A stretch of 64,000 bases of DNA from an uncultured Fibrobacterota bacterium (GCA_963729895.1 CAVSQB010000009.1:32001-96000); one strand, 5' to 3'. Numbered from the stretch's first letter, positions 13,467 through 34,975 are shown. Notes: a model not told the origin generated them from the sequence alone. Translations and numbers: made by a program.

Positions 13467-14315
13467 TTAGAGGCCTTTATCCTCAATTTCCTTGATCTGC
13501 GCATAGCTGAACACGGGCCCGTCCTTGCAGACGTATTTGCTTCCCATGTTGCACCTGCCGCATTTGCCGATGCCGCAACTCATCTTCCGTTCCTGGGACG
13601 TGATGATGGTCTCCGGCGAAAAACCGAGCGTCAGCAACGGCGGGATGGTGAATTTGAGCATGATGGGCGGTCCGCACACAATGCAGGAGGCATTTGCGGA
13701 TGATGGGGCGACCTGGCTCACCACCGCAGGGACAAAACCTTCGCGGCCTTTCCACGATGCGTCGCCTTTGTCGACGGTAATGTGGGTCTGAACATCTTTG
13801 CGCTGCTGCCATTGCCGGAGCTCCGGTTTGTACAGGAGCTCGCCCGGGCTGCGCGCGCCGTAGATAACGGTGATGGCGCCGAACTGCGTGCGAACGGAAT
13901 CATCCAGCAAATAACGGATGGTCGCCCGCAGCGTGGTGAAGGCAAATCCGCCGCCGACGATCACGACGTTCTTTCCGGTCAGGTCTTTGAGCGGAAAGCT
14001 GTTTCCCATCGGGCCGCGCAGGCCGACGATGTCGCCCTCCGACAGGTCGTGCAGGGCATTTGTCACCACGCCGGTCGGGTAGCGTTTTACCGTGAATTCA
14101 ACATACCCTTTGTCAAGTGGTGACGAGGCTATTCCTATGGGGATTTCGCCCGCGCCGGGCACCGACAGCATGGCAAACTGGCCGCACTCGTGGCTGAAGC
14201 CGTTGCCGTTGCAGAAAACAAGGCGGAACGTCTTAAGGTCTTTTTCGTCGTTTTCAACGACTATTGTCTCGATGCGCGCCTGCACCGGGACATAGGGATT
14301 GCCGCTCGTGCTCAT
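13467..14315 (-). CDS. flxA: FlxA/AsrB-like FAD/NAD-binding oxidoreductase with 2Fe-2S
   Basis: GQFAMLS..GEIPI, RGPMGN, GGGFAF, CGPPIM, MSCGIGKCGRC...VCKDGPVF. Confidence 0.88.
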   Translation of the reverse strand: MSTSGNPYVPVQARIETIVVENDEKDLKTFRLVFCNGNGFSHECGQFAMLSVPGAGEIPIGIASSPLDKGYVEFTVKRYPTGVVTNALHDLSEGDIVGLRGPMGNSFPLKDLTGKNVVIVGGGFAFTTLRATIRYLLDDSVRTQFGAITVIYGARSPGELLYKPELRQWQQRKDVQTHITVDKGDASWKGREGFVPAVVSQVAPSSANASCIVCGPPIMLKFTIPPLLTLGFSPETIITSQERKMSCGIGKCGRCNMGSKYVCKDGPVFSYAQIKEIEDKGL

Positions 14316-15319
14316 GAATTCACCTTGGCTATGGTCTCTCTTATGTCAATATTGCTGGGGCAGTGCTCCACGCAGCGGCCGCACCCGACGCAAAACACGG
14401 CGCCGAAGTTCTCGGGAGCATACGAGAACTTGTGCATCACCCGCTGGCGCATGCGCTCGCCTTTTCTTGCACGCGGGTTATGGCCCGAGGCCTCGCGCGT
14501 AAACGAAGGGAACATGCACGCGTCGTGCAGCCGGATTCGCGCACTCGCGCTCCCCCGCTTTTCCTCGTACAAATCGAAACAATGACAGGTTGGGCACAAG
14601 AAGGTGCATGCGCCGCAGCTCAGGCACGTCTCGGCGAGCTCCTCCCAGAACCGGGAGTCGTTTCTCTTCTCCAAAGCTTTGGGGGCACCGCTCACGGCGA
14701 CTGTGGAAATCCGTTTGGCAGATTCCGACTCCTGCCTCTTCTTGTTCTGCAATTCATGCGCCGTCGGCGCACGGAATAAAGCGCTGTTCTTCTTGAGAAA
14801 GGCCTCGCCCTTTTTCGTTACCGGCTCAAACAGAAGCGACGCGGCCTGGCCGGCCGCCGCAATATCCGCCCCCGCTGTTGCGGACGGGCCGCAGCCCGTG
14901 GACATGCAGAAGCATGCCTCGCCGGGTTCGCTGCAGGCGAGGGAAATCACCAGCGCACTGTCCCTTCTGGCCTGATAATACGGATCCGTGTACGCGGCGT
15001 CGCTAAACACTTTGTCAAGGTACGCAAGCGCCTGCCCGTCGCAGGGACGCACACCGAAAATCACGCTTGCCTGGCCGCGGACCGGTTCTTCGGAGACCTT
15101 TGTACCGTCGAATCTGGTGATCACTTCGCATTGCGGAAAAAATTCCCGCTTCGGAGGCAGCTTGAAATTGGCGTAGTCCAGCACGATGTCGCTCTTCGCA
15201 GACAACTCGCCCAATACCGTTCCGTTTTCGGTGGCCACCGGCCCCAAGGCCTTGCCCTGCTTGAGCATGGCCCCGACGAATTTCTTGAGGTTCTTCTTGT
15301 CCAGCGCAACGGAAACCAC
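14312..15319 (-). CDS. flxB: FlxB/AsrA-like 4Fe-4S dicluster protein
   Basis: FGVRPCD, CLSCGACTFLCPTCHCF, CVGCGRCVEHCP; GTG start 15319 next to upstream stop. Confidence 0.85.
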   Translation of the reverse strand: MVSVALDKKNLKKFVGAMLKQGKALGPVATENGTVLGELSAKSDIVLDYANFKLPPKREFFPQCEVITRFDGTKVSEEPVRGQASVIFGVRPCDGQALAYLDKVFSDAAYTDPYYQARRDSALVISLACSEPGEACFCMSTGCGPSATAGADIAAAGQAASLLFEPVTKKGEAFLKKNSALFRAPTAHELQNKKRQESESAKRISTVAVSGAPKALEKRNDSRFWEELAETCLSCGACTFLCPTCHCFDLYEEKRGSASARIRLHDACMFPSFTREASGHNPRARKGERMRQRVMHKFSYAPENFGAVFCVGCGRCVEHCPSNIDIRETIAKVNS

Positions 15320-15320
15320 T

Positions 15321-16235
15321 CTATTTTTCCTCCGGATCGGTAATGAAACACTGGCTGTCGTCCTGTGCGAACGTGTTGAGCATAGGCACCTCGTCACCGG
15401 CCGTTCCCGGCACGCTGCCGAACAGCTCCTGCGCATCGCACACAAGTTTCTGGGTGAACCGGCGCAGGTCTATTCCCATGGGACAGGCATTGACGCATGC
15501 GTCGCATGCAACGCAGCGGCCGGCCTGATGGAACATTCTCCCCATGTGGAACACGATGGTTTCAGAAAGCTCGTTGGCCGGAGACACCCACGACGGCTTT
15601 CTCTGGTCCGCAAAGCATGTTTTGCAATAGCAGTTCGGGCACGCCTCGCGGCATGCGTTGCACCGGATGCACTTTGAGATTTCTTTGACAAAGGCCTTCC
15701 ACCGCTCTTCCGAAGACTTTCGCGCGAACGCCTTGACGCGCTCATATCCCGGCTTTGCCGGCTTCCGGCTTTCACCGGCTATGGTTATATCAGCATTCGT
15801 AACCGTCGGGCTCACGCATTCCTGGCAGGCGCGGGCGACTTCTTCCTTCTTGGGCTTTGCGCCTTTGTTCGAGGCAGCCATTCCGCTGCACGGCATGCCG
15901 ATAACAATGAGATTCGCCTTGGGCACCTGGTTTTCCTTCACAAGACCGGAAACCGACCGGCTGTCGCAGCCCTTGGCGATAATTGCTATGTGCGGGGGTT
16001 TGTACCCGTCTTTGGGTCGTGCCGGTTTTTCAAAAAGGCTTGGCAGGAATGCGGCCAGATTCGCCGTGCAGAAGCCGTTCCAGACAAGATGCTCCACGTC
16101 CGCCGCGCTGCGGGCAAAATACGGGCGCGATGAATTGGGAAGGGACCCTCTTCTGAAGCCCACGACCACGTCCACCTTCTTGTCGTCGAACAGCCTCTTC
16201 GCCGCCGCTTTCATCTTTCTTTCTTGGTCCTGCAT
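15321..16235 (-). CDS. flxC: FlxC-like 4Fe-4S dicluster protein
   Basis: AKGCDSR, CIRCNACREACPNCYC, GRCVACDACVNACP. Confidence 0.85.
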   Translation of the reverse strand: MQDQERKMKAAAKRLFDDKKVDVVVGFRRGSLPNSSRPYFARSAADVEHLVWNGFCTANLAAFLPSLFEKPARPKDGYKPPHIAIIAKGCDSRSVSGLVKENQVPKANLIVIGMPCSGMAASNKGAKPKKEEVARACQECVSPTVTNADITIAGESRKPAKPGYERVKAFARKSSEERWKAFVKEISKCIRCNACREACPNCYCKTCFADQRKPSWVSPANELSETIVFHMGRMFHQAGRCVACDACVNACPMGIDLRRFTQKLVCDAQELFGSVPGTAGDEVPMLNTFAQDDSQCFITDPEEK

Positions 16236-16265
16236 CCTTACTTCTCTCTTGCTGTCAATGTTACG

Positions 16266-16718
16266 TTAACAAGCGTTCGCTGCGGCTCTTTCTTTCCTGG
16301 CTATCTTCTTTGATGTCGTAAGGCTGCGAACGTCGTTCACCACCTTTTCGATGAGCGAAGCAAAACGCCCGCCTTCCGAGGCCGACACCCATGAAAACTG
16401 CACCCGTTCCGGCTCGATCCCCAGATATTCCAGAAAGCTCTTGAGCATGGCGAATTTACGACGCGCGACCAGGTTCCCGGAAATGTAATGACAGTCTCCC
16501 GGATGACAACCCGAAACAAGAACGCCGTCGGCCCCTTCCTGGAGCGCCTTGATAATGTAAAGAGGATCAACCCGGCCCGAACACGGTACGCGGATCACAC
16601 GCACGTTCGCCGGATACTGCAGCCTGCTCACGCCGGCAAGGTCCGCCCCGGCATAGGAGCACCAGTTGCACAAAAAGGCGACAATGGTCGGTTCTCGAAT
16701 TTCCGTTGATTTAGTCAA
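16266..16718 (-). CDS. flxD: MvhD/FlxD-like 2Fe-2S subunit
   Basis: FLCNWCSYAGAD, VPCSGRV, GCHPGDCHY, WVSASEG; TTG start. Confidence 0.9.
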   Translation of the reverse strand: MTKSTEIREPTIVAFLCNWCSYAGADLAGVSRLQYPANVRVIRVPCSGRVDPLYIIKALQEGADGVLVSGCHPGDCHYISGNLVARRKFAMLKSFLEYLGIEPERVQFSWVSASEGGRFASLIEKVVNDVRSLTTSKKIARKERAAANAC

Positions 16719-16740
16719 TTACTCTCTCCTCAAAAAGGCT

Positions 16741-16812
16741 TCACCACGGAGACAAACATCCAACACGATTTTGCTCTTCTTCTTCTCTGCGTTCTCCGTG
16801 CCTCCGTGGTGA
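16741..16812. repeat. Palindromic intergenic repeat (TCACCACGGAG...CTCCGTGGTGA)
   Basis: 11-bp perfect terminal inverted repeat; 9-bp periodic right arm. Confidence 0.75.
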
Positions 16813-16819
16813 TTTTACT

Positions 16820-19800
16820 TCATATCGTTGCGAGCATGCTCAATATCTGCTCGTTCCTGAACCCGTTCAGGTCTATGGCACCCGCTCTGCACGATGCCGC
16901 GCATGCGCCGCACCCTTTGCATAGCGCCTCGTTGACAACTGCAATGCCCTTCACCGGATCGAGCTCTACGGCGCCGTAGGCGCATACGGCCACACAGGTT
17001 CCGCACCCGCTGCACATGTCCGCCCGGATGGTTGAGATCTTTCCCTCGGACTCAATTGACTTCTTAGAAAGCACGGTGGCCGCCCTCCCTGCCGCCGCGC
17101 GCGCCTGCGCAATGGTCTCCCCGATGTCCTTGGGATAATGGGCCAGGCCGCACACAAACACGCCGTCGGTGGCGAAATCGACCGGCCGCAGCTTGACATG
17201 CGCTTCGAGAAAGAAGCCGTCGGATTCAAGCGGCACCTTAAAGAACTGGGACAGCGCCTTGTTGTCGGGATTTGCAACGATGCCCGCGCTGAGCACCAGG
17301 AGGTCGGGCTTTATCTTTACGGTCCTTCCAAGGATCGTATCGTTGACCGACACAACAAGATCGTTCCCGAGTTTCTTAACCTCAGGTTTTTTGGCTGCAT
17401 CAAACCGGATGAATAGCACGCCCTTCTCGCGCGCGAGCCGGTAATATTTCTCCCGCAAACCATAGCTTCGGATATCCCTGAACAGAAGGTAAACCGCAGT
17501 TGCGGGACTCCGCTCTTTGATCGCTATGGCGTTCTTGAGCGCGTTGGAACAGCATACGCGGCTGCAGTAGTCGCGCGTTTCATCGCGGGAGCCGACGCAT
17601 TGAATCATCACAACTGATTTCAGATTGCCGATTGCGGATTGCGAATTGTCGGCCGCGGTCTGTTCATGGTCCGATCCCGGGTATAGCATCGCTTCGAACC
17701 GGCGCTGGGTAATGATCCGTTCATCCTTGCCGTAAAGGTAGTCTGCCGGCTGAAGCTCATCGGCCCCGCTGGCGACAATCACGACTCCGTGATCGATTGG
17801 CGCACCGTTGCCTTCGAGCTCGGTGTGGAAATTACCGACATAGCCGGATACTTTCTTGATCTTCGAATTCAAGTGCGTCTTGATCTTCGGGTGATGCGTC
17901 ACGTTCTCAATCATATGGCTCAACTCGGGTCTCGTCGCTTTTCCGGAAAGCGTTGAGCGCACGTGCAGCAGGTTGCCGCCGAGCTCGCCTGTTTTCTCCA
18001 GCAGGGTGACGTTGAAATCCTGATTTGCGAGGTCGAGGGCGGCCGTCATGCCCGCAAGGCCGCCGCCGATGACCAGCGCGCCTTTGGTCACTCCCATGCT
18101 CTTTTTATACAGCGGCGCGGCAAGCTTCACTTTCGCAACGGAGGCGCGAACCAGATCGCAGGCCTTGCGCGTCGCGTTTGCGGACTCTTTCTGGTGCACC
18201 CATGCACAGTGTTCGCGGATATTGGCGAAATCAAAAAGATACGGATTAACACCGGCCTCTTCGAGCGTCTTTTGGAACAGCGGCTCATGGGTGCGCGGGG
18301 TGCACGCAGCCACCACAAGCCTGTTGAGCCTGTGCTGCTCCACTGCGGCCTTGATTGCCTTTTGTGAATCCTGCGCGCAGGAAAACATGAGCTCACCGGC
18401 GAATTTCACGCCGGGCAGGCTTTGAGCGTAGTGCACCACGGCCGGGACATCCACAACGGAGGCTATGTTGATGCCGCAACGGCACACGTACACGCCTATC
18501 CTCGGCGGCTCACCGCGCAAATCCTTCTGTCGGGGGAGATCTACCTTTATCTCCTTGACCGGCACATTGCCAAGCGTTGATGCCGCAGCCGACGCAGCGC
18601 CGCTCGCCTCGATTACCGATTCGGGAATGTCCTTGGGCCCGCTCACGCTGCCGCACACAAAGATGCCTGCACGGTTTGTGGAAACGGGTTCCATTGTGTC
18701 AACGCTCACGAAACCGGCCGCATCGATCCGGACGTTCAGGCTGCCGGCGGCGGCCATGGACGACACGGACGGTTGAATGCCGACCGACAGCACGAGCATG
18801 TCGAATTTCCGGGTGGAGACTTTTCCGTCCTGCGTGATGTAATGAATGGTGAGGTCGTTGGTGACAGGGTCGCTTTCCACGGACGCAATGCGACCGTTGA
18901 TCAGCGTGGTGTCGTGCCGGTCCCGAGCCTTGTCGATAAACCGGTCGAAACCCTTGCCGTATGCGCGTATGTCCATGTAGAAAATGGTCGTCTTCGCTTT
19001 TGGCAGGTGCTCCTGGGTGATGATCGCGTCCTTTGCAGCCTGCATGCAGCAAATTGCCGAGCAATGTTCGTTTCCGGCCGAGATGTCCCTTGAGCCAACG
19101 CACTGGAGTATGGCTATCCTTGCCGGCTCTTTCTTGTCCGACGGCCGCAGGATATGTCCGCCCGTTGGGCCGGACGCGCTCAGAAGCCGTTCGTATTCGA
19201 TGCTGGTGACCACGTTGGGAAACACGCCGTATCCGTATTCGCCCTTGAGCTTCGCGTCGAACTCGGTGGTTCCGCAGGCAAGGATCACCGATCCCACATC
19301 GACGGCCATCGCTTCTTCTTTTTGTGTAAAGTCAATGGCATTGGTGCCGCACGACTTCTGGCACAGGCGGCATGTGCCCTTCGTGAGATACAGGCATTTT
19401 GCGGCATCAATAACCGCAACCGCGGGAACAGCTTGCGGAAAAGGAATTCTTATGGCCTTGGTCTGGGACAGGCCTTTGTTATAGGGATCGGGAACCTTGA
19501 CGGGGCACTTGGTAACGCAGATACCGCATCCGGTGCATTTACTTTCGTCAACATAGCGTGGCCGCCTGCGAACTTTCACGGTGAACCTGGGCGGCTCGCC
19601 CTCGATCCCGGTGACTTCGCTGTTGGTCATGATGTGCAGGTAGGGATGACCGCCTGCCTGGACGAGTTTGGGCGAAAGGATGCACATGGCGCAGTCGTTG
19701 GTGGGAAACGTCTTGTCGAGTTGCGACATGCGCCCGCCGATGGATGGCCCGGTTTCCACCAGAAACGTTTCAATGCCCATGTCGGCAAGATCCAATGATG

Positions 19801-19849
19801 CCTGGATCCCCGCTACGCCGCCGCCGACCACCATCGCCTTTTTATGCAT
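16820..19849 (-). CDS. hdrA: Tandem (two FAD domain) HdrA-family flavoprotein
   Basis: GGGVAG and GGGLAG FAD motifs, LDKTFPTNDC, two QCVGSRD...CS..CC motifs, ACTPRTHE, FLEAHVKLRPVDF, ferredoxin motifs. Confidence 0.93.
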   Translation of the reverse strand: MHKKAMVVGGGVAGIQASLDLADMGIETFLVETGPSIGGRMSQLDKTFPTNDCAMCILSPKLVQAGGHPYLHIMTNSEVTGIEGEPPRFTVKVRRRPRYVDESKCTGCGICVTKCPVKVPDPYNKGLSQTKAIRIPFPQAVPAVAVIDAAKCLYLTKGTCRLCQKSCGTNAIDFTQKEEAMAVDVGSVILACGTTEFDAKLKGEYGYGVFPNVVTSIEYERLLSASGPTGGHILRPSDKKEPARIAILQCVGSRDISAGNEHCSAICCMQAAKDAIITQEHLPKAKTTIFYMDIRAYGKGFDRFIDKARDRHDTTLINGRIASVESDPVTNDLTIHYITQDGKVSTRKFDMLVLSVGIQPSVSSMAAAGSLNVRIDAAGFVSVDTMEPVSTNRAGIFVCGSVSGPKDIPESVIEASGAASAAASTLGNVPVKEIKVDLPRQKDLRGEPPRIGVYVCRCGINIASVVDVPAVVHYAQSLPGVKFAGELMFSCAQDSQKAIKAAVEQHRLNRLVVAACTPRTHEPLFQKTLEEAGVNPYLFDFANIREHCAWVHQKESANATRKACDLVRASVAKVKLAAPLYKKSMGVTKGALVIGGGLAGMTAALDLANQDFNVTLLEKTGELGGNLLHVRSTLSGKATRPELSHMIENVTHHPKIKTHLNSKIKKVSGYVGNFHTELEGNGAPIDHGVVIVASGADELQPADYLYGKDERIITQRRFEAMLYPGSDHEQTAADNSQSAIGNLKSVVMIQCVGSRDETRDYCSRVCCSNALKNAIAIKERSPATAVYLLFRDIRSYGLREKYYRLAREKGVLFIRFDAAKKPEVKKLGNDLVVSVNDTILGRTVKIKPDLLVLSAGIVANPDNKALSQFFKVPLESDGFFLEAHVKLRPVDFATDGVFVCGLAHYPKDIGETIAQARAAAGRAATVLSKKSIESEGKISTIRADMCSGCGTCVAVCAYGAVELDPVKGIAVVNEALCKGCGACAASCRAGAIDLNGFRNEQILSMLATI
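17614..17648 (-). repeat. Five heptamer repeats (CAATCCG-like) embedded in frame in hdrA
   Basis: Minus strand caattcg caatccg caatcgg caatctg aaatcag, translating NSQSAIGNLKS. Confidence 0.7.
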
Positions 19850-19852
19850 GGG

Positions 19853-20320
19853 TTATTTTCCGACCTTCGCCTTGGTTTTCTTCGCAACAGGTTTTTTTCC
19901 CGCAACCGCACCCTTCACCAGTTCACGCCTCAGCGTCTGCGCCTTCTTGTCGAACTCACCCTCTTTCGCAAGCATCTCCGCCGGAGCAAACCCGTCCCGT
20001 ACGGCCATGTGCCGGAGCGCGCGCATGACATCGGTAAAATTCACCTGCTGGGGACACCGGGCATAGCACCGGTAGCACATCATGCACAGCCAGATCGCGG
20101 GCGACGCCAGAACTTCCTGACGCATGCCGTAGAGCACCTTGCGGATGATGGTCCTGCAGTTGTACTCCTCGTCGATGTTCGTGACGGGACACCCGGCCGC
20201 GCAGGTGCCGCAGGCGAAACATTTCGTGATGTTCGCCCCGCCGGGCATGAGCGCCACTTCGTCCCGGAAGGTAGGATCGAGTTCTTCTACGACTATGACC
20301 TCTGAGTTACTTTTTGTCAT
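19853..20320 (-). CDS. hdrC: HdrC-like 2x4Fe-4S subunit
   Basis: CFACGTCAAGCP and IWLCMMCYRCYARCPQ; GAGG RBS before ATG 20320. Confidence 0.9.
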   Translation of the reverse strand: MTKSNSEVIVVEELDPTFRDEVALMPGGANITKCFACGTCAAGCPVTNIDEEYNCRTIIRKVLYGMRQEVLASPAIWLCMMCYRCYARCPQQVNFTDVMRALRHMAVRDGFAPAEMLAKEGEFDKKAQTLRRELVKGAVAGKKPVAKKTKAKVGK

Positions 20321-20359
20321 GATCAATCCACCTCTTGTATTTCTCAGAATTCCGCTTTT

Positions 20360-20432: not shown

Positions 20433-21125
20433 CTACGCCTTCGGCCCCATCCCTGCAATGCACTGATCTTCGCGCACCACTTTCCGTGCACCGCCGTCAT
20501 TTGACGTGGACCAGTCCTGCGGAACTGCGAGCGACTCAAGCATCGAAACTTTGTTCAGCGCCTTTGCCCGATCGTAGATGAGCTGCCACGCGCAATCCGT
20601 TTGGTCGCTCACTTCGCATTTACCGTTTCTGGAACTGCCGCACGGGCCGTTCAACTGCCGTTTGGAGCAACGGGTGATGGGACAAATTCCAAAGTACTGG
20701 CCCAGCCGGCAATTGCCGCAGCCCGCGCACTTCTCGGCCCACACTCCTTGCGATTCAAGAATTCCCATGAACTGCGTGTTGAGGCCGGGATACACTGCGG
20801 TTTTGGGAAACCGTTCGGCAAGCGCCTGGACCCCTGCACCGCAGCCGAGCGACAGGACCGCGTCGTAGTCGCCGACCCGCTGGCTCAACACGTCGATGAA
20901 CGCGTCTTCGCACTGGCGTTCGATGGTACACTCATGCACCACCACGCTTTCGCGTCCGGCAAGCTTGAGCGACATACGCAGCGCGGAACCTATGATGCCG
21001 GTCTCGCGCTCGCCTCCGGCAAGACATACGGTGACGCAGGTGCCGCAGCCCACAACGAGCACGCGCTTGTAGTCCTTTACCATGTCGCGAATTTCCGGAA
21101 TCTTCTTACGGTCGGCAACGATCAT
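20433..21125 (-). CDS. metV: MetV (methylene-THF reductase small Fe-S/Zn subunit)
   Basis: VGCGTCVTVC, RQCE, LGCGAGVQ, CAGCGNC...ICPITRCSK..LNGPCG...CEV...CAW. Confidence 0.9.
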   Translation of the reverse strand: MIVADRKKIPEIRDMVKDYKRVLVVGCGTCVTVCLAGGERETGIIGSALRMSLKLAGRESVVVHECTIERQCEDAFIDVLSQRVGDYDAVLSLGCGAGVQALAERFPKTAVYPGLNTQFMGILESQGVWAEKCAGCGNCRLGQYFGICPITRCSKRQLNGPCGSSRNGKCEVSDQTDCAWQLIYDRAKALNKVSMLESLAVPQDWSTSNDGGARKVVREDQCIAGMGPKA

Positions 21126-21604: not shown

Positions 21605-21634
21605 TTTCGTATTTGTCCTGTCAAAAGAAAACTC

Positions 21635-21761: not shown

Positions 21762-21774
21762 ATCTTATGTCTTT

Positions 21775-26839: not shown

Positions 26840-27744
26840 GAGAATTGTTCCAGTATCGCGTCCATATCTTCGGGATCAACCTTGCCGAAGCTCACGTCGT
26901 CGATGCGCATGGACGGCGACAAGGCGCACAGGCCCAGGCAGCGCACGGTACGCAAGGTAAAGCGTCCGGTCGTGTCGGTTCCGCCGTCGCTCACGCCGAG
27001 TTTCTTTTCGAGAAGAGAGAGCAACGCGCCGGAATGCTGCGAGTGGCAGCTTGTGCCGCTGCATACCTGGATAACGTGGCGCCCGGCCGGCTCGAACCTC
27101 ATCTTGTCGTAAAAACTCGCCACCTTGAGGGCGCTCGCCAGCGGAATGGCGAGCCGCGACGCAGCGTGTTCCACAATGGGGCGCGGCAGAAAGCCGTAGG
27201 TCCTGTTGGTTGCCTCGAGCACGGGCATCAGCGCGCCCGCATCACCCTGGTGCTTTGCAATGATATCCGTCAGAAATGCCTCATCTTTTTTGTCAAGTTT
27301 GGCGGCGGGCTTTGGTTCCGTCACGGTCCTTGGAATGTTTCGCACCGGGCATCGCTCTATGCAGTCGCCGCAGCCGGTGCATTTGTCCTGGTCAACGAAG
27401 CGCGGCCTGGTTCTCACGGTTGCCTTGAAATTCCCAGCCTCGCCCTCGAGTTTCACCACCTCGGACATGGTAATCACGTCGATGTTCAGGTCGCGCATGC
27501 AGGCGACAACCTTCGGTGAAATGATGCATGTGGCGCAGTCGCCCGTGGGAAATGTCTTGTCGAGCCGCGCCATGTTTCCTCCGATGGTGGCGCTCTCCTC
27601 AACAAGATACACGTAGAACCCTGCTGCGGAAAGATCCAACGATGCCTGAATGCCCGCGATCCCGCCGCCGCATACAAGCACGGCGCCTACAGGCTCTTTC
27701 TTGGCTTTAGCCGGGACCGGTTCCTTAAGAGTTTCCGCGATCAT
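26836..27744 (-). CDS. Fusion: HdrA N-terminal FAD-binding fragment + NuoE/HydC-like 2Fe-2S domain
   Basis: GGGIAG, LDKTFPTGDC, RPRFVD..KCTGCGDCIERCPV, then ALMPVL...VASFY...VCSGTSCH...RCLGLCALSP. Confidence 0.9.
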   Translation of the reverse strand: MIAETLKEPVPAKAKKEPVGAVLVCGGGIAGIQASLDLSAAGFYVYLVEESATIGGNMARLDKTFPTGDCATCIISPKVVACMRDLNIDVITMSEVVKLEGEAGNFKATVRTRPRFVDQDKCTGCGDCIERCPVRNIPRTVTEPKPAAKLDKKDEAFLTDIIAKHQGDAGALMPVLEATNRTYGFLPRPIVEHAASRLAIPLASALKVASFYDKMRFEPAGRHVIQVCSGTSCHSQHSGALLSLLEKKLGVSDGGTDTTGRFTLRTVRCLGLCALSPSMRIDDVSFGKVDPEDMDAILEQFS

Positions 27745-27786
27745 GACGTTTTGTCCCTTTTTGTTCCGTCAAAAGAAATGCAAGAC

Positions 27787-27905
27787 TCACCGCAAAGACA
27801 CAAAGGTCGCAAAGGAATGCAGAATTGTTACGTCAAGAAAGTTGACAATATGCTGCATTTGCTCTATTTCCAGTTTTCTTTGCGTCCTTCGCGCCTTTGC
27901 GGTAA
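27787..27905. repeat. Palindromic intergenic repeat, same family as 21635
   Basis: TCACCGCAAAGACACAAAGGTCGCAAAG ... CTTTGCGTCCTTCGCGCCTTTGCGGTAA. Confidence 0.8.
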
Positions 27906-27980
27906 ATCTCCTCTTCCGAACGATCAATTTCCAGGATCTTTCCCTTCACCGGTAAAAGCCTAACGTACTCTCCGGTACTT

Positions 27981-28008
27981 CTCTGTGTTCTCCGTGTCTC
28001 CGTGGTGA
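27981..28008 (-). repeat. Single repeat arm, subtype of 16785-16812
   Basis: CTCTGTGTTCTCCGTGTCTCCGTGGTGA, 2 differences from the 16785 arm. Confidence 0.75.
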
Positions 28009-28020
28009 ATCCTATTCCCC

Positions 28021-30648
28021 TCATTCTTCCGTCTCTTCCCCGGCCGTCTTGCTCTTCGGCATCACCTTGCGATAGACCGCACCCGGCTTTTTCACAACAC
28101 CGCCGACCGTGAGAAGATCCCGCTCTATTTGAATATCAAACAGCCGCTCGTTTTCCTGCAGATACGGCAGTAGAAGCTTCCAGTCCTCATTCGTGAAGCG
28201 CCCGAACATGCCGCCGTTGAGCTGTTCGTTCACGAGGGTACGCTGAGGGTCGCGCAGGTAAATCGCCCCGCCCGAGGCCAGCGACAGCAGGTTGCTGCCC
28301 GGGTACGGGAGGTCGAGTCCAACAATGTCTCCGTTGTCTTCAACGCGAAGCCCATTGACAATTGCAAATCCGCCGCCCGCCAGCGGGTCGCCGGCCATGA
28401 ACGATTCCGCGAGAAAGTCCAGCGCGGTGCCATTGATCACCACCTTCGGCTTTCCCACGGCGTTGATCATAGGCCTGCCGGCCGCGTTACCCATCACGTA
28501 GATCTCTCCGCCCTTTGCGCCGTACAGGAATGTCTGGCCGACGTCTCCGTACACCACCACTTTCCCGCGCTTGGAAATCTGGCACAACTGGTCCTGCGCG
28601 TTTCCATGAACATAGGCCTCGAGCCCGTCGATGCCGGAGCCCAGATAGTCGCCCGGATTGTCGTAACAGTCGACTCGAAGTCCGTCTGTTGCGGGGCCAA
28701 AGCCCGCGGCGTGAAATCGCGTGCCGCGGGAATTGTAATGCACGATATGCCGCCATCCGAGCTTGTATGCATCAACGGCAAGGTGCGCATCGCAATCGTC
28801 GCCCTCGGCCTGGAAACCCGTTGCATCAATAAGAAGCGTTGTCTCACCTTCGTGCGGGCCGCGGAGGGATTGCCGTGTGTCAAACGTAATGCGGCGGCAC
28901 GCGCTTGCGGCTTCCCGGCCGATGCCGGGCTGCACCGAAAAGATTGTTTCCAATCCGCTTCGAAGCGCCGCAACCACCGAACTGCGTTTTTTGTCGCCCG
29001 TGGGATACCGGCGGTCGATTGCCAAGGTGAGCGCCTGGATGCCGAACGCCGGTTCGTCTTTCGCACAGCTTGCTGCAACCTGCTCCGCGCACCAGCGCAG
29101 CCGGTTGTAATCCATGGCACGGATGTTTTCGCGCAGGTACTCGAACATCATCTGCGGATTGTTGTCCTGCAGGGCCTGCGATATCGCCGCAGCATCGGCA
29201 TCTTTACTTGAAGGAACCGTCACCGGAATCGAAAAATCGCAATGCGCCTGTCCGGGCCGCGTTCCCACCTGCTGGCCGAATTTGTTGGTAACGTTCAGGG
29301 TGTAGTCCGGCGAGGTTCCGTTGTGCCCGTTGCCCGACGGGACAACGTTCAGCAGGAAAGCGCCTCCGTCCGTCGAACTGCCGCCGCGCGCGTTCCAGTA
29401 CATGTCGGCAATGGGCGAAAACCGCGAATCCTCGCGCGCCAGACTCGCCAGCGTTGCGTCGATGGCCTGCTTCTCGGAACAGATGAGCCCGATGGAGACT
29501 TTGCCTTCCTGAAGCGCAAACACCTGAGGACGCAGCATGGCCGTGTCGGTGATGCCGAGCAATTGAAATCCCATTTTATCAAGATTGCGCGCGATGATGA
29601 AAAACCACGGGCCGTCGGGCGACGCATGGATCTGCGCGGCCTGGATTTCTTTGTATACTCGCTGTTTTTCCACGGGCAGCCGGTCGAAATCGAGCTCGGT
29701 GGTGGGCGCGAGCGATTCTATGATGTATTCCACCGGATACTTGTACACGCGGTTCATGAGGTCGAACAGCATGATGGACGCTTCGGTGTCGGTCAGGAAC
29801 TGCGGGAACAGGTTGCGCTGCGCGAGATATTCGCACACCGAAAGGTAATTTGCGAAGTCGCCGTTGTGGACGAGCGCCTCGTTCATGCCGATAAACGGGT
29901 GGCAGCCGCCCGGATGCCACACGCGGCCGCGCGTGGGGTACCGCTGGTGCGCGATCCACACGTGCGCTCGCGAGTCTTCCATGCGGTAATACTGGACCAC
30001 GGCTTCGGCGTATCCCACCACCTTGAGAATAATCAGATTGCGCGCATGCGAAAGCACGAATGCGCGCTTCTCGCCGAGTGACGCGTAGAATCGGTTGTTG
30101 AGCTTGCTGGAATTCTGGAACACGAACTCGTCTTCGATCTCACGCGGCTCAAGGCCGGTCAGTTTCTTCTCGTCTGCAAACTTTGCGAGCGCATCCTGTT
30201 TTGCGCGGACAAAGTAGCGCGCCACGTCGGGCGGCTTCACCTGCAACAGCGGTACGTCGCGATAATCGCTCACCGTGGGAATGATGCCGCCCTGGTCTAT
30301 GGTGAAAAACGGCTCGATGCATTCCTTCTCAACCTCGCCTTTAGCACCGGCATCGAGGAGCGCGACCTGCAGGCAGTAATCCTCTTCGAGCACCGACCTC
30401 GACACGCCAAAATCCTCGGGCACGAGCCCGCAGGCGGCAATACCGCCGCCTTTGCCGTTGCCGCGGTTGCGCATCTGGATGCTCGGCTCGTAAATGTGCT
30501 TCCCGCGCACCGGGATGGTACAGGCGAAACCGGTAACGCCGCATCCGCCTTCGGCTTCCTGAGGTTTGCCGATCCATTCGCCGGAAGGCCGGAGGCCGTC
30601 GCGGCTGCGGATGAGGGCTTCCGCCCGGTCAAGAGACGAAACCGTCAT
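28021..30648 (-). CDS. Glutamate synthase GATase-II domain fused to GXGXG beta-helix domain (GltB1-GltB3 type), no FMN domain
   Basis: Propeptide then EGG/CGV Ntn nucleophile, AHQRYPT, HNGD, TDTE, DGPW, LRPQ; C-terminal GDYLG, GNAQD, GAKGG, ESFMAG, ASGGAIY. Confidence 0.88.
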   Translation of the reverse strand: MTVSSLDRAEALIRSRDGLRPSGEWIGKPQEAEGGCGVTGFACTIPVRGKHIYEPSIQMRNRGNGKGGGIAACGLVPEDFGVSRSVLEEDYCLQVALLDAGAKGEVEKECIEPFFTIDQGGIIPTVSDYRDVPLLQVKPPDVARYFVRAKQDALAKFADEKKLTGLEPREIEDEFVFQNSSKLNNRFYASLGEKRAFVLSHARNLIILKVVGYAEAVVQYYRMEDSRAHVWIAHQRYPTRGRVWHPGGCHPFIGMNEALVHNGDFANYLSVCEYLAQRNLFPQFLTDTEASIMLFDLMNRVYKYPVEYIIESLAPTTELDFDRLPVEKQRVYKEIQAAQIHASPDGPWFFIIARNLDKMGFQLLGITDTAMLRPQVFALQEGKVSIGLICSEKQAIDATLASLAREDSRFSPIADMYWNARGGSSTDGGAFLLNVVPSGNGHNGTSPDYTLNVTNKFGQQVGTRPGQAHCDFSIPVTVPSSKDADAAAISQALQDNNPQMMFEYLRENIRAMDYNRLRWCAEQVAASCAKDEPAFGIQALTLAIDRRYPTGDKKRSSVVAALRSGLETIFSVQPGIGREAASACRRITFDTRQSLRGPHEGETTLLIDATGFQAEGDDCDAHLAVDAYKLGWRHIVHYNSRGTRFHAAGFGPATDGLRVDCYDNPGDYLGSGIDGLEAYVHGNAQDQLCQISKRGKVVVYGDVGQTFLYGAKGGEIYVMGNAAGRPMINAVGKPKVVINGTALDFLAESFMAGDPLAGGGFAIVNGLRVEDNGDIVGLDLPYPGSNLLSLASGGAIYLRDPQRTLVNEQLNGGMFGRFTNEDWKLLLPYLQENERLFDIQIERDLLTVGGVVKKPGAVYRKVMPKSKTAGEETEE

Positions 30649-32207
30649 TTCTTCCCTCTGTCGTTTTCATAGTCAAGATGCATCAGCAGGTCCGTTCTTC
30701 CCCGCAGGGCGGTGACCGATTCGAGGCCCAGGCGGTACAGTATGTCAACCAGGCATTCCCTGAAAGCGGTATGAAGGTTCACCAGGCGCTGCGTGCACCA
30801 CTCCACGGTGAGCAATTGCAGCAACTCCGGATCGGTGGTGCAGATTCCGCGCGCGCATCCCCGGCCGCTCTCGCAGCATCCGCAGCGGATGCACCCGAGC
30901 GAGACCAGCTCGGCCGTGCCGATCACGATCCCGTCGGCGCCCATGGCGATTGCCTTGGCAATGTCCCACGGATTGCGGATTCCGCCGGAAACGATGAGCG
31001 TGATCTCGTCGCGCACGCCTTCGGCCACCAGAAACTGGTGCACGTTGCTTATTGCGTATTCGATGGGCATGGCGATGTTCTTCTTGGCGATGTTCGGGGC
31101 GGCGCCCGTGCCGCCGTAGCTGCCGTCCATGTGCACAATGTGCGCGCCGGCGCAGTACGATCCTACCGCCACCATCTCCACGTCGTTGGGCGTGGAAACT
31201 TTTGCCGAAAGCAATGCGGTCCTGTTGACATGAGCGATCCAGTCGAGGTGCTTCTTGTGGTCCTCTATCGAATACACGCTGTGGAACGGAAACGGCGAGA
31301 ACAGTGACGTGCCCACAACAGCCTCGCGCATGGCGGCAACCGCAGGCGTATTCTTGTCGCCCAGAAGATGTCCGCCCAATCCCGGCTTGGCGCCTTGCGC
31401 GTATTTGAACTCAACGATGCGCGCGCGTTGGATGGTTTCTTCGCGCACGCCGAACAGGCCTGTGGCAACCTGGGTGATCATGTAATCTTTATAGGGAATA
31501 AAACGCTCCGGATATCCGCCCTCACCCGTGCAACTGAAGGTGTTCCACGCCTTGGCCGCTCTCACTTTACCCAGCTGCGCCCGGATATTGGTTGATCCGA
31601 ACGACATGCCTCCGCCGTACCATGGAACGTCGATCTTTATCTTCGGCCTCGAATCGTTCTTCCTCTTATTAAGGAGCAATTCGGTGGAAATGTCCTCGCG
31701 CCGGAGGCCGGACGGGATCTTGTCCGGAAAAACGAACCGCAGCCTGTCGAACCCGCCTCCCGAGTTTCCAACCTGGCTTTCGAGATGCGGAGGCGGCTGC
31801 CTGCCGGTTTCGGCCATGTGCCAGTTGCTCGCCAGAAGGTCCGGTGTCCAGCGATAATCGCCGAGTGTCTTGAAAACCTGATTCTCATCGAGCGAAAGCG
31901 CATGCTGCGGGCAGGTGGTGATGCAGAACCGGCCGGTCTTTTCGCAGTCCGGGCCTACACATTTATAATCGAACGGACGGATAACCTGACGGTAGCCAGC
32001 GGGACGGACATGAACTCCGTGTTGGCATACGTCGACGCACTTCCCGCACGAAACACAGGTTGACGCGCGATGGATGCTATACTTCCCCATCTCATTGCGG
32101 TAACGCGGCGGCGCTGTCCGCACGGTGCGCGAAACATCGGCAAAATCGGGACGCGATGTGAAATCTTCCGCTGTCTGCGGGACCGGTTTGATGGCTGTTG
32201 TGGTCAT
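30645..32207 (-). CDS. Glutamate synthase FMN domain (GltB2 type) with N-terminal ferredoxin; motifs intact
   Basis: GGGMSFGS, TGEGG, QVATGLFGV, EFKYAQGAKPGLGGHL, SGGIR, CIRCGCC....C. Confidence 0.9.
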   Translation of the reverse strand: MTTTAIKPVPQTAEDFTSRPDFADVSRTVRTAPPRYRNEMGKYSIHRASTCVSCGKCVDVCQHGVHVRPAGYRQVIRPFDYKCVGPDCEKTGRFCITTCPQHALSLDENQVFKTLGDYRWTPDLLASNWHMAETGRQPPPHLESQVGNSGGGFDRLRFVFPDKIPSGLRREDISTELLLNKRKNDSRPKIKIDVPWYGGGMSFGSTNIRAQLGKVRAAKAWNTFSCTGEGGYPERFIPYKDYMITQVATGLFGVREETIQRARIVEFKYAQGAKPGLGGHLLGDKNTPAVAAMREAVVGTSLFSPFPFHSVYSIEDHKKHLDWIAHVNRTALLSAKVSTPNDVEMVAVGSYCAGAHIVHMDGSYGGTGAAPNIAKKNIAMPIEYAISNVHQFLVAEGVRDEITLIVSGGIRNPWDIAKAIAMGADGIVIGTAELVSLGCIRCGCCESGRGCARGICTTDPELLQLLTVEWCTQRLVNLHTAFRECLVDILYRLGLESVTALRGRTDLLMHLDYENDRGKK

Positions 32208-32222
32208 GATTGGTGTTCGTCC

Positions 32223-33620
32223 CTAATTGCCGTCTTTGCGTTTCCCGAAAATACGCCCGAATGCCGCGCGTTCCAGGTCTTCAAAAAACATGCACCTGCC
32301 TACTTCGCCCCGCAGGCGCCGCGCTTCACGTATGCCCATTGCGCCGAGCATTTCCAGAAGCTGGCTGTGCCATGATCCCATCAGATTGACAAGCCTGCGG
32401 ACCGCGTATTGTTCGTCAATCCCGGCCAAGTCGACAGAACACTGCTCGCCCCTCTCGCATTCCCCGCACAACCTGCAATCCATGGCGAGAATAAGCGGAA
32501 TATCGACGGTAACCAGGTCGGCGCCGCAGATAATCGCCTTGGCCATGTGCTCCGGCAACGCAATGCCTCCCGAGGCAATGAGCGTGATTTCGTCGCGGAT
32601 GCAATCCTTGACAAGCGCTGCATGCACTTCACGGACGGCATCGCGCATATGGCGCGGCTTCTCCGCCTCGAGTTCCCTGCCATGTTTGTCGAACACCACA
32701 TTGACAACCTCAATGCCCTGGTGAGCCAGCCACAGGACGCGGGCCGCTGCCGCCTTCCCGGACGCCAGCCGTACCGCGACGATTCTCCGCGCATTCTCCT
32801 GTTTGCATGCGGCCGCCGTCTCGACAACACGGTCCGAATCCTGGATAACCACCATGGCCGAATCCGCAAACCGGCCGTCCGGTGCGGGCGCCTTGTCGTC
32901 CATCAAGGGAACAACTTGTGAGTTCGCGCCGGTCCCGATATTTGCAATCCGGTCGGGAGAAACCAAGGCAAACAGTCCCAGATCGGTTGCAGCCTTCACA
33001 AGAGCCGAAACAACCGGGGCATGCGCCCAGTGCTGCGCGATATTGTCGAACATAAGCGGCAGCGGGCTCTGAATGCGCGGCGGCGGGGCTTCGCGAAGTT
33101 TCCCGTTGTCAAAGGAAATGCGTCCCAGTTTGCGGCCGATGTCAACGCCCGTGTTGATATATTCGCGTCCGTGAATCCCGTCGCGCGTCGGCCGCACGAT
33201 TTCCGACATGTCGGTCCACATCGAATCGAATCCCTCACCTGAAAAGGGGCCGCCATAGCCGCAGCCGGACACCGGAACGCCTCCGGTTTCGGCCTGGAAC
33301 CACGTGGTAAGCACTATATCGGGGTTGTAATAACTGTCGCCAAGGCGCTCGTATTCGGGATTCACCACTCTCGTGAGAATGTTCTTGGTGCAGTTCTGCA
33401 CGCAGGTAAGGCAGCCTTTGCACTGGTATATGTAATCGAGGTATCCTATTTCGTCGCGGAGCGCGTCGGCCTCGTCGCGATACAGGCCGTACACGCAGCC
33501 TTTCTTCACGCAGTTATGGCACCCGGAGCAGTCTTCTCGCCAGTCAACAATGCCGAGCTTGCCCTCCGGACGGATGCGCGGCGGCGTCGGCTGCGTTTGA
33601 ATGTGGTACTTGGCAGGCAT
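32223..33620 (-). CDS. Degenerate paralog of the glutamate synthase FMN domain with N-terminal ferredoxin
   Basis: CSGCHNC and CKGCLTCVQNC; shares GFD, RDEITLIASGGI, AKAI..GAD, CRLCGEC with neighbour but lacks MSFG, TGEGG and QGAKPG. Confidence 0.8.
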   Translation of the reverse strand: MPAKYHIQTQPTPPRIRPEGKLGIVDWREDCSGCHNCVKKGCVYGLYRDEADALRDEIGYLDYIYQCKGCLTCVQNCTKNILTRVVNPEYERLGDSYYNPDIVLTTWFQAETGGVPVSGCGYGGPFSGEGFDSMWTDMSEIVRPTRDGIHGREYINTGVDIGRKLGRISFDNGKLREAPPPRIQSPLPLMFDNIAQHWAHAPVVSALVKAATDLGLFALVSPDRIANIGTGANSQVVPLMDDKAPAPDGRFADSAMVVIQDSDRVVETAAACKQENARRIVAVRLASGKAAAARVLWLAHQGIEVVNVVFDKHGRELEAEKPRHMRDAVREVHAALVKDCIRDEITLIASGGIALPEHMAKAIICGADLVTVDIPLILAMDCRLCGECERGEQCSVDLAGIDEQYAVRRLVNLMGSWHSQLLEMLGAMGIREARRLRGEVGRCMFFEDLERAAFGRIFGKRKDGN

Positions 33621-33626
33621 GCCGGA

Positions 33627-34544
33627 TTATCCCAATCTCGATTTCAGAGCGTTAAGCACGTCCATGGCCGCATCACTATCGTCGTCGCACACAATTTCAA
33701 AACCGCGCAATCCTTCGATGCTGCTGAGTTTTTCAATGGTTTCAAGCGCCATCTTTATCCCATCCGCGCGGGCGGCGCTTGAGTCCGGTTTTGAAGAAAG
33801 CCGGCTGAGCACATCTGCCGGCACCATCGGATTGGGCCGTTTTTCTACAAAGGCCTTTGCTTTTTCAACATCAGTGAGCACCTTGATTCCGGCAACAAAA
33901 GCCGCTTTATGGTGCAGCCCGCGATTGATAACTTCCTTCCACCACGTGGCGAAACGGTCAAGATCAAAGACCGGCTGGGTAACGATAAACTGCGCACCCA
34001 CAAAGATTTTTTGTGCAAGCCGGGGCAACTGCAATTCAAGCGGGTCGGCAAAAGGAGAAGCAACGGCCCCCAGACAATACGATACATGGCCATCGATATT
34101 TTCTTCGCCGACTATGGAAGCATTTTTTTCAAGGCCGTGCAGGCTTTGCAACAAAATTGTGGCGTCAATATCAAACACGTTCTTGGCCGCATGAAACGGA
34201 AGAAGCGTCTGATGCGTGCCGCTGGTGCAGAGGATATTGCGGATCCCGAGGGCACGCGCGCCGAGAAAATCGGAAATCAGGGCCGTCCGGTTGCGGTCGC
34301 GCGTGGTCATGTGCAGAATGGGTTCCACGTTTTCGGATGCGATAATCGCGGCCGCAGCGAGGGCCGACATTCTCACCCCGTCCCGGTTGTCGCTCACGCC
34401 AAGGGCGTGAACTCTGCCCGCAAACTGTTTCGCCATCTGCCGGACGCCGGCAGCGTCGGACGATTTCGGGGGCGAAATCTCGGCGGTAACGATTTGCTTT
34501 CCGGATTCGATCCGTTTCTGCAGGACGGTTTTTTCTTGTTGCAT
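33627..34544 (-). CDS. metF: MetF-like methylenetetrahydrofolate reductase flavoprotein
   Basis: TAEISPPK, SDN, ILHMTTRDRN, LGIRNILC, GAQFIVTQPVFD; conserved GD reads GT. Confidence 0.82.
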   Translation of the reverse strand: MQQEKTVLQKRIESGKQIVTAEISPPKSSDAAGVRQMAKQFAGRVHALGVSDNRDGVRMSALAAAAIIASENVEPILHMTTRDRNRTALISDFLGARALGIRNILCTSGTHQTLLPFHAAKNVFDIDATILLQSLHGLEKNASIVGEENIDGHVSYCLGAVASPFADPLELQLPRLAQKIFVGAQFIVTQPVFDLDRFATWWKEVINRGLHHKAAFVAGIKVLTDVEKAKAFVEKRPNPMVPADVLSRLSSKPDSSAARADGIKMALETIEKLSSIEGLRGFEIVCDDDSDAAMDVLNALKSRLG

Positions 34545-34555
34545 GGTAAACCTTC

Positions 34556-34975
34556 TTATGTATGCGCTTCCACGGCCGGGCCGCTCAGCCTCTTTGCCGC
34601 ATCGTAAATGATCTCTTTGAGCTGTCCGGGAGTGACGTTTTGAGGACAATGAACGAGCTCAGCACGGCCCGGATCGAGTCCGATCTCGGAAAGCAGCCGT
34701 TTTACCGTCTTGACCCTCATCTCGGAACGGTAATTGCCCTGCGAAAGCGTGCATTCTCCGAGAGCGCAGGTAATAATGCAGATTCCGCGAACCCCGCCCT
34801 CCAGGGCATGAAGCATGTATTGCGCGTCGATCTTGCCGCTGCATGGGATTTCTTTGATCCGGACATGCGTTCCGGCGTCCGTCCACTGGACCGGCATGAG
34901 TCCGGCGTGAGGTACGCAGTTTTTGCAGAGATAGATTGTGATGTCGGAAGAAGCTTGATGTGCCATTTCAACCAT
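34556..34975 (-). CDS. Divergent MvhD-like 2Fe-2S subunit
   Basis: YLCKNC, IPCSGKID, CALGECTLSQGN, LLSEIGLDPGR. Confidence 0.82.
   Translation of the reverse strand: MVEMAHQASSDITIYLCKNCVPHAGLMPVQWTDAGTHVRIKEIPCSGKIDAQYMLHALEGGVRGICIITCALGECTLSQGNYRSEMRVKTVKRLLSEIGLDPGRAELVHCPQNVTPGQLKEIIYDAAKRLSGPAVEAHT

Follow-up and report, generated by a model that had tools for sequence, protein, structure and literature searches.

A conserved gene cluster joining a split glutamate synthase to HdrA-type flavoproteins in an uncultured Fibrobacterota bacterium and its possible role in electron bifurcation

Background

A stretch of DNA of 64,000 nucleotides from an uncultured Fibrobacterota bacterium (GCA_963729895.1 CAVSQB010000009.1:32001-96000; the whole stretch is hereafter called the window) carries a packed array of 16 genes, in which the genes of a split glutamate synthase are joined to genes for HdrA-type flavoproteins. 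The GltD subunit is absent from the cluster, and the HdrC protein encoded there has no HdrB partner in the genome. The question raised by this locus is which proteins deliver electrons to the glutamate synthase and which acceptor receives the high-potential electrons of the HdrA proteins.

The analysis described here suggests, as a tentative answer, that the HdrA-wired glutamate synthase is itself the high-potential sink, which would let an Flx-HdrA module reduce ferredoxin with reduced nicotinamide adenine dinucleotide (NADH). The wiring on which this depends, from NADH through the cluster NuoF and the first HdrA and then through MvhD2, MetV, the cluster MetF and MvhD1 to GltB2x and GltB2, is considered probable. 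A fuller account, in which ammonia assimilation would be the exergonic branch of two HdrA units connected by an HdrB-free HdrC, with MetF and one GltB2 as non-catalytic wiring and with the reduced ferredoxin serving carbon monoxide dehydrogenase/acetyl-CoA synthase (CODH/ACS) or other low-potential reactions, is possible and more doubtful.

Relatives were collected with the GltB1/3 sequence, which gave 133 matches; the locus counts rest on 79 of these, divided into group A (66-89% identity, 40 loci with many phylum labels) and a sister clade, group B (53-58% identity, 39 loci, mostly Desulfobacterales). Absences from the genome refer to an assembly that is 96.7% complete.

Results and discussion

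Organisation and conservation of the cluster

The co-directional order proposed in the initial annotation, which had been made from the sequence alone, was confirmed as 16 minus-strand open reading frames (ORFs) running from 34975 to 13467 (Table 1). With the chosen start codons, 11 of the 15 intergenic gaps are of 30 bp or less and the others measure 276, 170, 112 and 101 bp. Repeats had been placed in all the larger gaps, which holds for three of the four; these contain members of a dispersed palindromic repeat family (30-45 nt, intergenic, 20-29 copies in the genome versus none in shuffled controls). A 63-codon ORF at 27833-28024, lying inside a repeat gap and without a family match, was rejected as spurious. 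All 16 genes are under purifying selection, the ratios of non-synonymous to synonymous substitution rates (dN/dS) being 0.03-0.24 against two relatives. The cluster encodes, as annotated, four HdrA flavin modules, three MvhD proteins (PF02662) and two NADH sites (NuoF and FlxA), but the Glu356/Lys409 pair used as a criterion of bifurcating HdrA (PMC9430772) is present in only three of the four modules.

The closest GltB1/3 relatives bear Fibrobacterota labels, and the complete 16-gene order recurs in seven other genomes labelled Fibrobacterota or Planctomycetota (G082, G083, G084, G003, G141, G142 and G144); it is cut by contig ends in three more (G112, G086 and G140). The conserved-synteny search proposed at the outset supports the linkage of the glt and hdr genes, since all 38 group A loci that reach past gltB1/3 run directly into hdr genes, in several phyla. 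Behind gltB1/3, hdrC-hdrB is present in 29 of these loci and missing from nine (six with Fibrobacterota and three with Spirochaetota labels). In group B, metV-metF lies directly upstream of gltB2x in 24 of the 27 informative loci (mvhD only in two, neither in one), and none of the group B loci has an hdr operon behind gltB1/3 within the flanks.

Canonical GltB was searched for in 50 of the 79 genomes. It is encoded in 31 of 37 genomes of group A and in one of 13 of group B. Group B therefore probably relies on the split enzyme for house-keeping glutamate synthesis, and in group A this enzyme is probably an additional one with a specialised role. The 12 group B genomes without canonical GltB include a single-chromosome assembly, and their lack of it fits a true glutamate synthase. 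At one locus outside this test (L062), gltBD adjoins the cluster. The trio gltB2x-gltB2-gltB1/3 can also sit beside other neighbours, as in L087 and L089 (G095 and G087), where it stands behind glmS and a gene for a GlcD-like flavin adenine dinucleotide (FAD) protein, without mvhD or met genes.

The glutamate synthase subunits

The catalytic core formed by GltB1/3 and GltB2 is intact as judged by its motifs, and glutamate synthase activity is predicted. In GltB1/3, Cys36 (after a 35-residue leader), Arg62, Arg236, Asn262-Gly263 and Asp287 are invariant in 73 sequences; Cys36 is taken to be the nucleophile and the other positions to include the oxyanion residues. The sequence is too divergent for alignment to a solved GltB or to the genome's own GltB. 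GltB2 aligns to residues 857-1170 of A. brasilense GltB (E 1e-49) with its flavin mononucleotide (FMN) and 2-oxoglutarate loops retained; its catalytic motifs are conserved across 61 sequences, and the C-terminal iron-sulphur (Fe-S) motif is present.

The description of the first GltB2 copy as degenerate was upheld, and MetF proved to be degenerate as well. Compared with its paralogue GltB2, GltB2x is full-length but lacks a 44-residue catalytic loop, as aligned by hhalign, and the FMN motifs, with the Cys motifs kept; it is likely to be a catalytically inactive Fe-S protein. Its predicted structure (predicted local distance difference test score 78) matches best the GltB synthase domain (Z 24.7, root-mean-square deviation 7.7, 338 aligned). 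Its identification as the GltB central domain was rejected because it matches the synthase barrel instead, and no full central-domain match (PF04898) is present among the cluster proteins. GltB2x may fill the role of that domain and also carry electrons, since the central domain has been described as a truncated barrel that possibly arose from such a duplication (PMC8097209). The reported lack of GltD applies to the cluster but not to the genome, where contig C41 carries canonical gltB and gltD side by side.

The MetF, MetV and MvhD1 proteins

The cluster MetF keeps Glu22 and Gln190, with Thr110 replacing Asp120 and Glu283 replacing His273, the equivalent positions having been located with the aid of the sister clade and of the E. 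coli-type MetF encoded in the genome; His273 is the His of the MetF triad. Among 28 group A sequences, Glu28 is retained in 27, Gln183 in 24, and Asp120 and the triad His in one each, whereas all four residues are found in every one of the 25 canonical sequences, which comprise those of 24 group B loci and the second MetF of L028. The only group A sequence with an Asp120 equivalent is that of L014, on a contig labelled Bathyarchaeia, which may reflect transfer or mis-binning. Asp120 has been termed invariant and essential (PMC9900621), and the Asp120Asn variant of E. coli MetF has 0.3% of kcat remaining (PMC11094777). Because Asp120 and the triad His are lost in the clade, the cluster MetF most probably serves as a scaffold or passes electrons on through its flavin, residual activity being possible. 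A pseudogene is ruled out by the dN/dS of 0.13-0.18, and the idea that oxidative methylenetetrahydrofolate reductases (MTHFRs) change Asp120 is ruled out by Sphingobium S6MTHFR, which retains it (PMC11868366). A MetF tree built with a quick method split the two groups with a support of 57 and a long outgroup branch, and was not used as evidence. MvhD1, in which four Cys are invariant in 26 sequences, is likely an adaptor heading the glt module.

The first HdrA and its Nuo module

The first hdrA is interrupted within its inserted ferredoxin domain by nuoE-nuoF-nuoG'. Module 1 of this split HdrA carries Glu/Lys and module 2 Ser/Lys, the Ser at the Glu356 position being shared by at least 90% of 30 sequences. 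At the same slot, 14 of the 38 group A loci have a GltD/NfnB-family insert (504-521 residues), 17 have the Nuo module and three have none, four being cut off. The GltD-type insert is the architecture of the Moorella HdrA (PMC9430772) and of HdrL (PMC2702500), and has been proposed to accept NADH and to block ferredoxin (PMC12054007). Because NuoEFG' occupies the slot of the GltD-like insert in 14 relatives, it is read as a replacement of GltD; by this comparison, the GltD slot is occupied by another NADH module and is not simply empty.

The best solved relatives of the cluster NuoF are BfuB subunits, to which it aligns up to about residue 535 of 584-602. It ends before the C-terminal B3/B4 clusters of BfuB (a criterion from PMC9304861), a domain that is kept in five of 13 other loci and in L104, L106, L107 and L120. 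Among the motif positions Ala/Glu232, Met234, Phe367 and GGPSG (PMC7311640), mapped through the solved BfuB subunits, Met and Phe are kept, position 232 is Ser and the last Gly is replaced by Ile. Because the C-terminal ferredoxin domain and two of the four motif criteria are lost, this BfuB-derived protein should not reduce ferredoxin.

The second HdrA, HdrC and their missing partner

Both modules of the second HdrA carry Glu/Lys in an alignment to 5ODC chain A, and it has the only free ferredoxin site in the cluster. The cluster HdrC shares 31-45% identity with the HdrB-paired HdrC of group A, is about 40 C-terminal residues shorter and aligns only to residues 11-116 of a solved HdrC. An HdrC alignment search gave 62 loci, of which the 37 closest (L098-L134) were counted; 25 more distant ones, several with hdrB, were left out. 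Among the 37, none of the 13 loci joined to glt/met genes has a gene between hdrC and hdrA, whereas an FrhB/FdhB-family gene lies there in 22 of the 24 unlinked loci (22 of 23 informative; one without, one cut), its identity being confirmed with Pfam in nine of nine scanned. In one spirochaete, hdrC-hdrA-flxDCBA lies upstream of mvhD1-metF, with the modules in the opposite order and again without the FrhB-like gene.

The missing partner of HdrC had been assumed to be HdrB. This proved wrong for the present subfamily, whose lost partner is an FrhB-like protein; deletion of HdrB from between hdrC and hdrA was rejected because the relatives' gene at that place is FrhB-like. A full FrhB-like protein is absent from the organism's own genome. 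The statement that HdrB is lacking extends to the whole genome, as the hdrB search gave no PF02754 (CCG) match there, with 12 of 14 controls detected; DsrC is absent from the genome too. CCG proteins are also absent from all seven type A carriers in the order sample, from four of five further genomes and from four planctomycete carriers; they are absent from G141-G145, with one each in G140 and G026.

A hdrC-frhB-like-hdrA(tandem)-flxDCBA module without hdrB is widespread (L108, L111, L113-L119, L121-L123 and L125-L134), often behind a second Nuo-split HdrA and under Spirochaetota, Planctomycetota and Verrucomicrobiota labels, and no description of it was found in a full-text literature search. 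The flxC query returned one relative only.

Proposed electron flow and energetics

The cluster probably encodes a soluble flavin and Fe-S assembly in which the split glutamate synthase would be fed by HdrA modules and not by GltD. In the first step, electrons of NADH would enter through NuoF and NuoG' into the split HdrA, MvhD2, MetV, MetF and MvhD1 would relay them to the Fe-S clusters of GltB2x and GltB2 and on to FMN, and 2-oxoglutarate would be aminated with ammonia derived from GltB1/3. In the second step, NADH would feed FlxA-B-C-D and the second HdrA, from which one electron branch would lead to ferredoxin and the high-potential electron would pass by way of HdrC to the first HdrA or to the glt wire. 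In the complexes already known, high-potential electrons leave through HdrC and low-potential ones through the inserted ferredoxin domain (PMC12054007). Here, the ferredoxin site of the first HdrA is occupied and that of the second is free, and the HdrC of the second has no HdrB, DsrC or FrhB-like partner. GltB2 is proposed as the sink because HdrC is partnerless and no other intact reductive active site remains in the cluster.

The overall reaction was computed at -15 to -25 kJ per ferredoxin pair, the potential of the glutamate-synthesis sink being an assumed value. The other potentials came from PMC9304861, PMC9430772 and PMC8097209. Glutamate synthesis as the sink, already suggested in the initial annotation, is favoured by the intact core, the glt-hdr linkage, the absence of HdrB and DsrC and the overall energetics; of two further parts of that suggestion, the link to a hydrogenase found no support and the methylene-tetrahydrofolate (methylene-THF) branch was weakened.

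Several observations weigh against glutamate synthesis as the high-potential sink. It is an anabolic, low-flux sink with an ATP cost at glutamine synthetase, and most group A genomes already have canonical GltB. The GltB FMN has been measured at -240 to -270 mV (PMC8097209); if this FMN accepts the electrons directly, a 1:1 split costs 10-25 kJ, and a series of 3 NADH : 2 sink : 1 ferredoxin brings the case near zero. In Hdr complexes already known, MvhD stands on the donor side (PMC12054007), so that the parts do not fix the direction of flow. In Sporomusa, the Hdr subunits were not co-purified with MetVF and no ferredoxin co-reduction was seen (PMC9430772). Three spirochaete loci (L009, L026 and L031) have gltB1/3-hdrL-mvhD-metV with neither hdrC nor hdrB behind, and a plain electron wire may suffice in glt-hdr loci without hdrCB. 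The linked hdrC loci are kin and may represent two joining events only. Finally, acetyl-CoA synthase (ACS) is found in nine of nine carriers versus seven of 52 others in the order sample, which favours a one-carbon (C1) link in the lineage.

Alternative explanations

Some of these observations would suit a linear NADH-dependent glutamate synthase, in which the split HdrA with MvhD, MetV and MetF replaces GltD and HdrC-HdrA-Flx is separate or non-splitting. This arrangement, though unlikely, agrees with the failure of NuoF on the Bfu criteria, the Ser for Glu356 in module 2 of the split HdrA, the three spirochaete loci, the group B loci without hdr genes in their flanks and the poor quality of GltB FMN as a high-potential acceptor. 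However, it leaves HdrC and a Glu/Lys-intact HdrA, all under purifying selection, without an acceptor in a genome lacking HdrB, DsrC and FrhB-like proteins, and the FrhB-like gene is gone exactly where the modules join.

Methylene-THF was the other sink considered in the initial annotation. In this version MetF would be active with two HdrA in series, coupling 3 NADH to 2 methylene-THF turnovers and 1 ferredoxin pair in the service of the Wood-Ljungdahl pathway, and the glt genes would be co-transcribed passengers. The genome encodes CODH/ACS and Fhs, ACS follows the carriers as stated above and occurs in 31 of 39 group B genomes, MetV is canonical, MetF retains Glu28 and Gln183, and the 3:2:1 stoichiometry comes to -11.6 kJ (2:1:1, +11.6 kJ). 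The claim is weakened by the loss of Asp120 and His273 in 27 of 28 clade members. Moreover, ACS occurs in only 15 of 40 group A genomes and in none of the four planctomycete carriers (the genomes being incomplete), so that the Wood-Ljungdahl pathway is not required; the genome has an E. coli-type MetF on contig C40; and the mvhD-gltB2x adjacency persists without metF (L028, L039 and L058). Taken together, methylene-THF as the real sink appears quite improbable.

Reverse flow, whereby reduced ferredoxin and glutamate (or methyl-THF) would be co-oxidised to yield NADH in place of glutamate dehydrogenase, is held to be very improbable. The absence of glutamate dehydrogenase from the genome, the coverage of assimilation by canonical GltBD, the Rex redox repressor gene adjoining the cluster end and the donor-side place of MvhD described above are in its favour, but the glutaminase site, unneeded for glutamate oxidation, is invariant, and this is the sole GltB found in 12 of 13 sister genomes.

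The least probable alternative is that the substrate aminated by the GltB-like trio, or receiving nitrogen from it, is a different one, perhaps with MetF handling a C1 unit bound to folate, in the manner of N-methylglutamate synthase (MgsABC, like archaeal GltB1-B2-B3, has three separate GltB-domain genes in a methylamine utilisation context): the divergence of GltB1/3, which aligns neither to the genome's own GltB nor to a solved one, the metF link in 24 of 27 informative sister loci and the GltBD redundancy in 31 of 37 genomes would fit, but the 2-oxoglutarate and FMN loops of GltB2 closely match A. brasilense GltB and nitrogen genes (glnA, amtB, P-II or carAB) occur in the flanks of 10 of the 79 loci.

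Comparison with known systems

The FlxABCD-HdrABC system of Desulfovibrio vulgaris, reportedly described by Ramos et al. in 2015, resembles the cluster in the order hdrC-hdrA-flxDCBA and in domain content; unlike it, the present genome lacks HdrB and DsrC, the HdrA is tandem and the HdrC belongs to the FrhB-pairing subfamily. As in the type IV MTHFR MetFV-HdrABC-MvhD known from Moorella thermoacetica and Sporomusa ovata (PMC9430772), the first flavin domain of the tandem HdrA harbours an NAD(P)H module and the next genes are mvhD and metV; 14 relatives carry the Moorella-type GltD insert. The cluster differs in that the insert is NuoEFG', hdrA is split in two, HdrB is absent, MetF is displaced and without Asp120/His273, and the cluster contains in addition three genes for glutamate synthase and another MvhD.

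Like NADPH-GltBD and ferredoxin-dependent glutamate synthase (PMC8097209), the enzyme has a class II glutaminase, an FMN barrel, a C-terminal Fe-S motif and a GXGXG beta-helix; unlike GltBD, it is split into GltB1/3 and GltB2, shows no full match to the central domain, for which the probably dead duplicate barrel (GltB2x) may stand in, has extra ferredoxin domains and lacks GltD. The class II benzoyl-CoA reductase Bam-Bfu complex BamBCDEFGHI (PMC9304861) likewise combines BfuABC-type parts with an HdrA module, proposed to act in series, but in the cluster the Bfu parts form fusions with HdrA, the B3/B4 domain of NuoF is missing and a glutamate synthase takes the terminal position. HdrL of Desulfobacterium autotrophicum (PMC2702500) and the type II/III HdrA of methane-cycling archaea (PMC12054007) also have tandem flavin modules, with an NAD(P)H module where the ferredoxin domain is inserted, and mvhD always next; their 'glutamate synthase' part is, in contrast, a GltD-like insert only, and no link to a catalytic GltB is described in the accessible parts of these papers.

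A full-text literature search, beyond the reach of which lie most subscription papers, found no description of GltB subunits linked to HdrA or MetFV, and the accessible parts of PMC6405883, PMC5736913, PMC6085437, PMC7325909, PMC9325076 and PMC11201294 hold nothing on this cluster.

Genomic surroundings and regulation

Table 1. Features of the cluster and its gaps, with positions in the window
Feature	Position	Strand	Evidence or remark
mvhD1, divergent MvhD, [2Fe-2S]	34556..34975	-	PF02662 79.6 bits; dN/dS 0.21-0.24
metF (cluster copy), MetVF-type MetF	33627..34544	-	PF02219 89 bits; dN/dS 0.13-0.18
gltB2x, GltB2 paralogue without FMN/2-oxoglutarate loops, Cys motifs kept	32223..33620	-	hhalign to GltB2, prob 99.9
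gltB2, FMN subunit of the synthase; ferredoxin domain at the N terminus	30645..32207	-	PF01645 284 bits
gltB1/3, class II glutamine amidotransferase-GXGXG beta-helix fusion	28021..30648	-	PF01493 38.2 bits, cut-off 32.5
276-bp repeat-holding gap; slot of hdrC-hdrB in 29 relatives	27745..28020	.	
hdrA'-nuoE, N-terminal tandem-HdrA part with NuoE/BfuC-type [2Fe-2S]	26836..27744	-	NF040770 13-135, PF01257 159-301
nuoF (cluster copy), BfuB/HydB-derived FMN subunit, ends before C-terminal 2x[4Fe-4S] domain	25097..26839	-	no Cys tail
nuoG'-'hdrA, NuoG/BfuA-type Fe-S domain and remaining tandem HdrA	21775..25095	-	Glu/Lys in module 1, Ser/Lys in module 2
170-bp gap, inverted pair of palindromic repeat family	21605..21774	.	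repeats I5, D2, D12
mvhD2, canonical MvhD	21122..21604	-	PF02662 170 bits
metV, canonical Fe-S partner of MetF	20433..21125	-	PF12225 113 bits; Cys motifs conserved
hdrC, short subfamily	19853..20320	-	TIGR03290
hdrA, tandem (type II), free inserted ferredoxin domain	16820..19849	-	alignment to 5ODC chain A
101-bp gap, repeat pair	16719..16819	.	repeats D2, D8, I15
flxD, MvhD family	16266..16718	-	PF02662 187 bits
flxC, Fe-S protein	15321..16235	-	Fer4 families; position conserved
flxB, Fe-S protein	14312..15316	-	PF17179; AsrA/HydB-beta relatives
flxA, FAD/NAD-binding [2Fe-2S] subunit, second NADH entry	13467..14315	-	PF00175, PF00970, PF10418
sigma-70-like site (9/12) upstream of mvhD1	35052..35080	-	10 sites vs 7.0 +/- 2.4 in shuffles; not above chance

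Besides the genes already mentioned, the genome encodes glnA; nitrogenase is absent from it. The claim that the reduced ferredoxin serves the neighbouring hydrogenase is not supported by the relatives, as hydA/E/F/G were not found in loci L001-L089 and flxA is followed by other genes in four relatives; CODH/ACS is a likelier consumer than the hydrogenase. As for the nitrogen role read from the amtB/P-II island, three of four close relatives have amtB or the NifA-like regulator no more than 10 kb from the cluster; the cluster has no sigma-54 box upstream of the kind found in perfect form at amtB (55573). Such boxes are not a general feature, being present in three of 47 cluster upstream regions versus five of 444 background windows. 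The numbers of promoter and terminator matches were in the range expected by chance, and five weak matches to Rex boxes (2.65 expected) included none at the cluster head.

The Rex redox repressor gene (12770-13399 in the window) is convergent with flxA and divergent from the operon of hyd maturases, which lies at 6195-12387 on the minus strand in the order hydE-hydG-hydF-aspA-like-TM1266 regulator and has a 10/12 promoter-like site at 12535-12507. A trimeric [FeFe]-hydrogenase is encoded at 508-2349 in the window and at G000:C9:28889-32568 (L092), its beta subunit (1093-codon frame) being a fusion of NuoF and GltD/NfnB-like parts, and nfnAB lies 15 kb upstream. The region 53253-61146 contains genes for a NifA-like GAF/sigma-54 activator, AmtB and P-II, a paralogous activator-amtB-P-II set being present on C27. 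A 1614-codon resistance-nodulation-division (RND) permease at 47574-52418, which exceeds the family model by about 550 residues, stands behind a second RND permease. The CODH/ACS cluster (L091, G000:C14:34443-44222) has an AcsB-AcsD fusion (1178-codon frame) and a 378-codon gene without an assigned family between two cooC-like genes; an AcsE-type pterin protein was not found there. Long ACS frames of this kind occur in several relatives.

Conclusion

The cluster is a real, conserved and apparently undescribed variant of HdrA-based systems, and there is a good chance that it houses a new bifurcating reaction. It bears on two questions, namely which second acceptor is used by Hdr-type MetFV complexes and what HdrA modules do where HdrB is lacking. 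A glutamate synthase without GltD is apparently the sole one in most of the tested Desulfobacterales-type genomes. As the known sinks (HdrB, DsrC, an FrhB-like protein and probably folate) are stripped away and one intact candidate is left, the cluster could show directly whether the cost of reducing ferredoxin can be met by nitrogen assimilation. If the proposal is true, this would be the first HdrA system with the C=N bond of an amino-acid precursor, in place of a disulfide, quinone or folate, as its high-potential acceptor.

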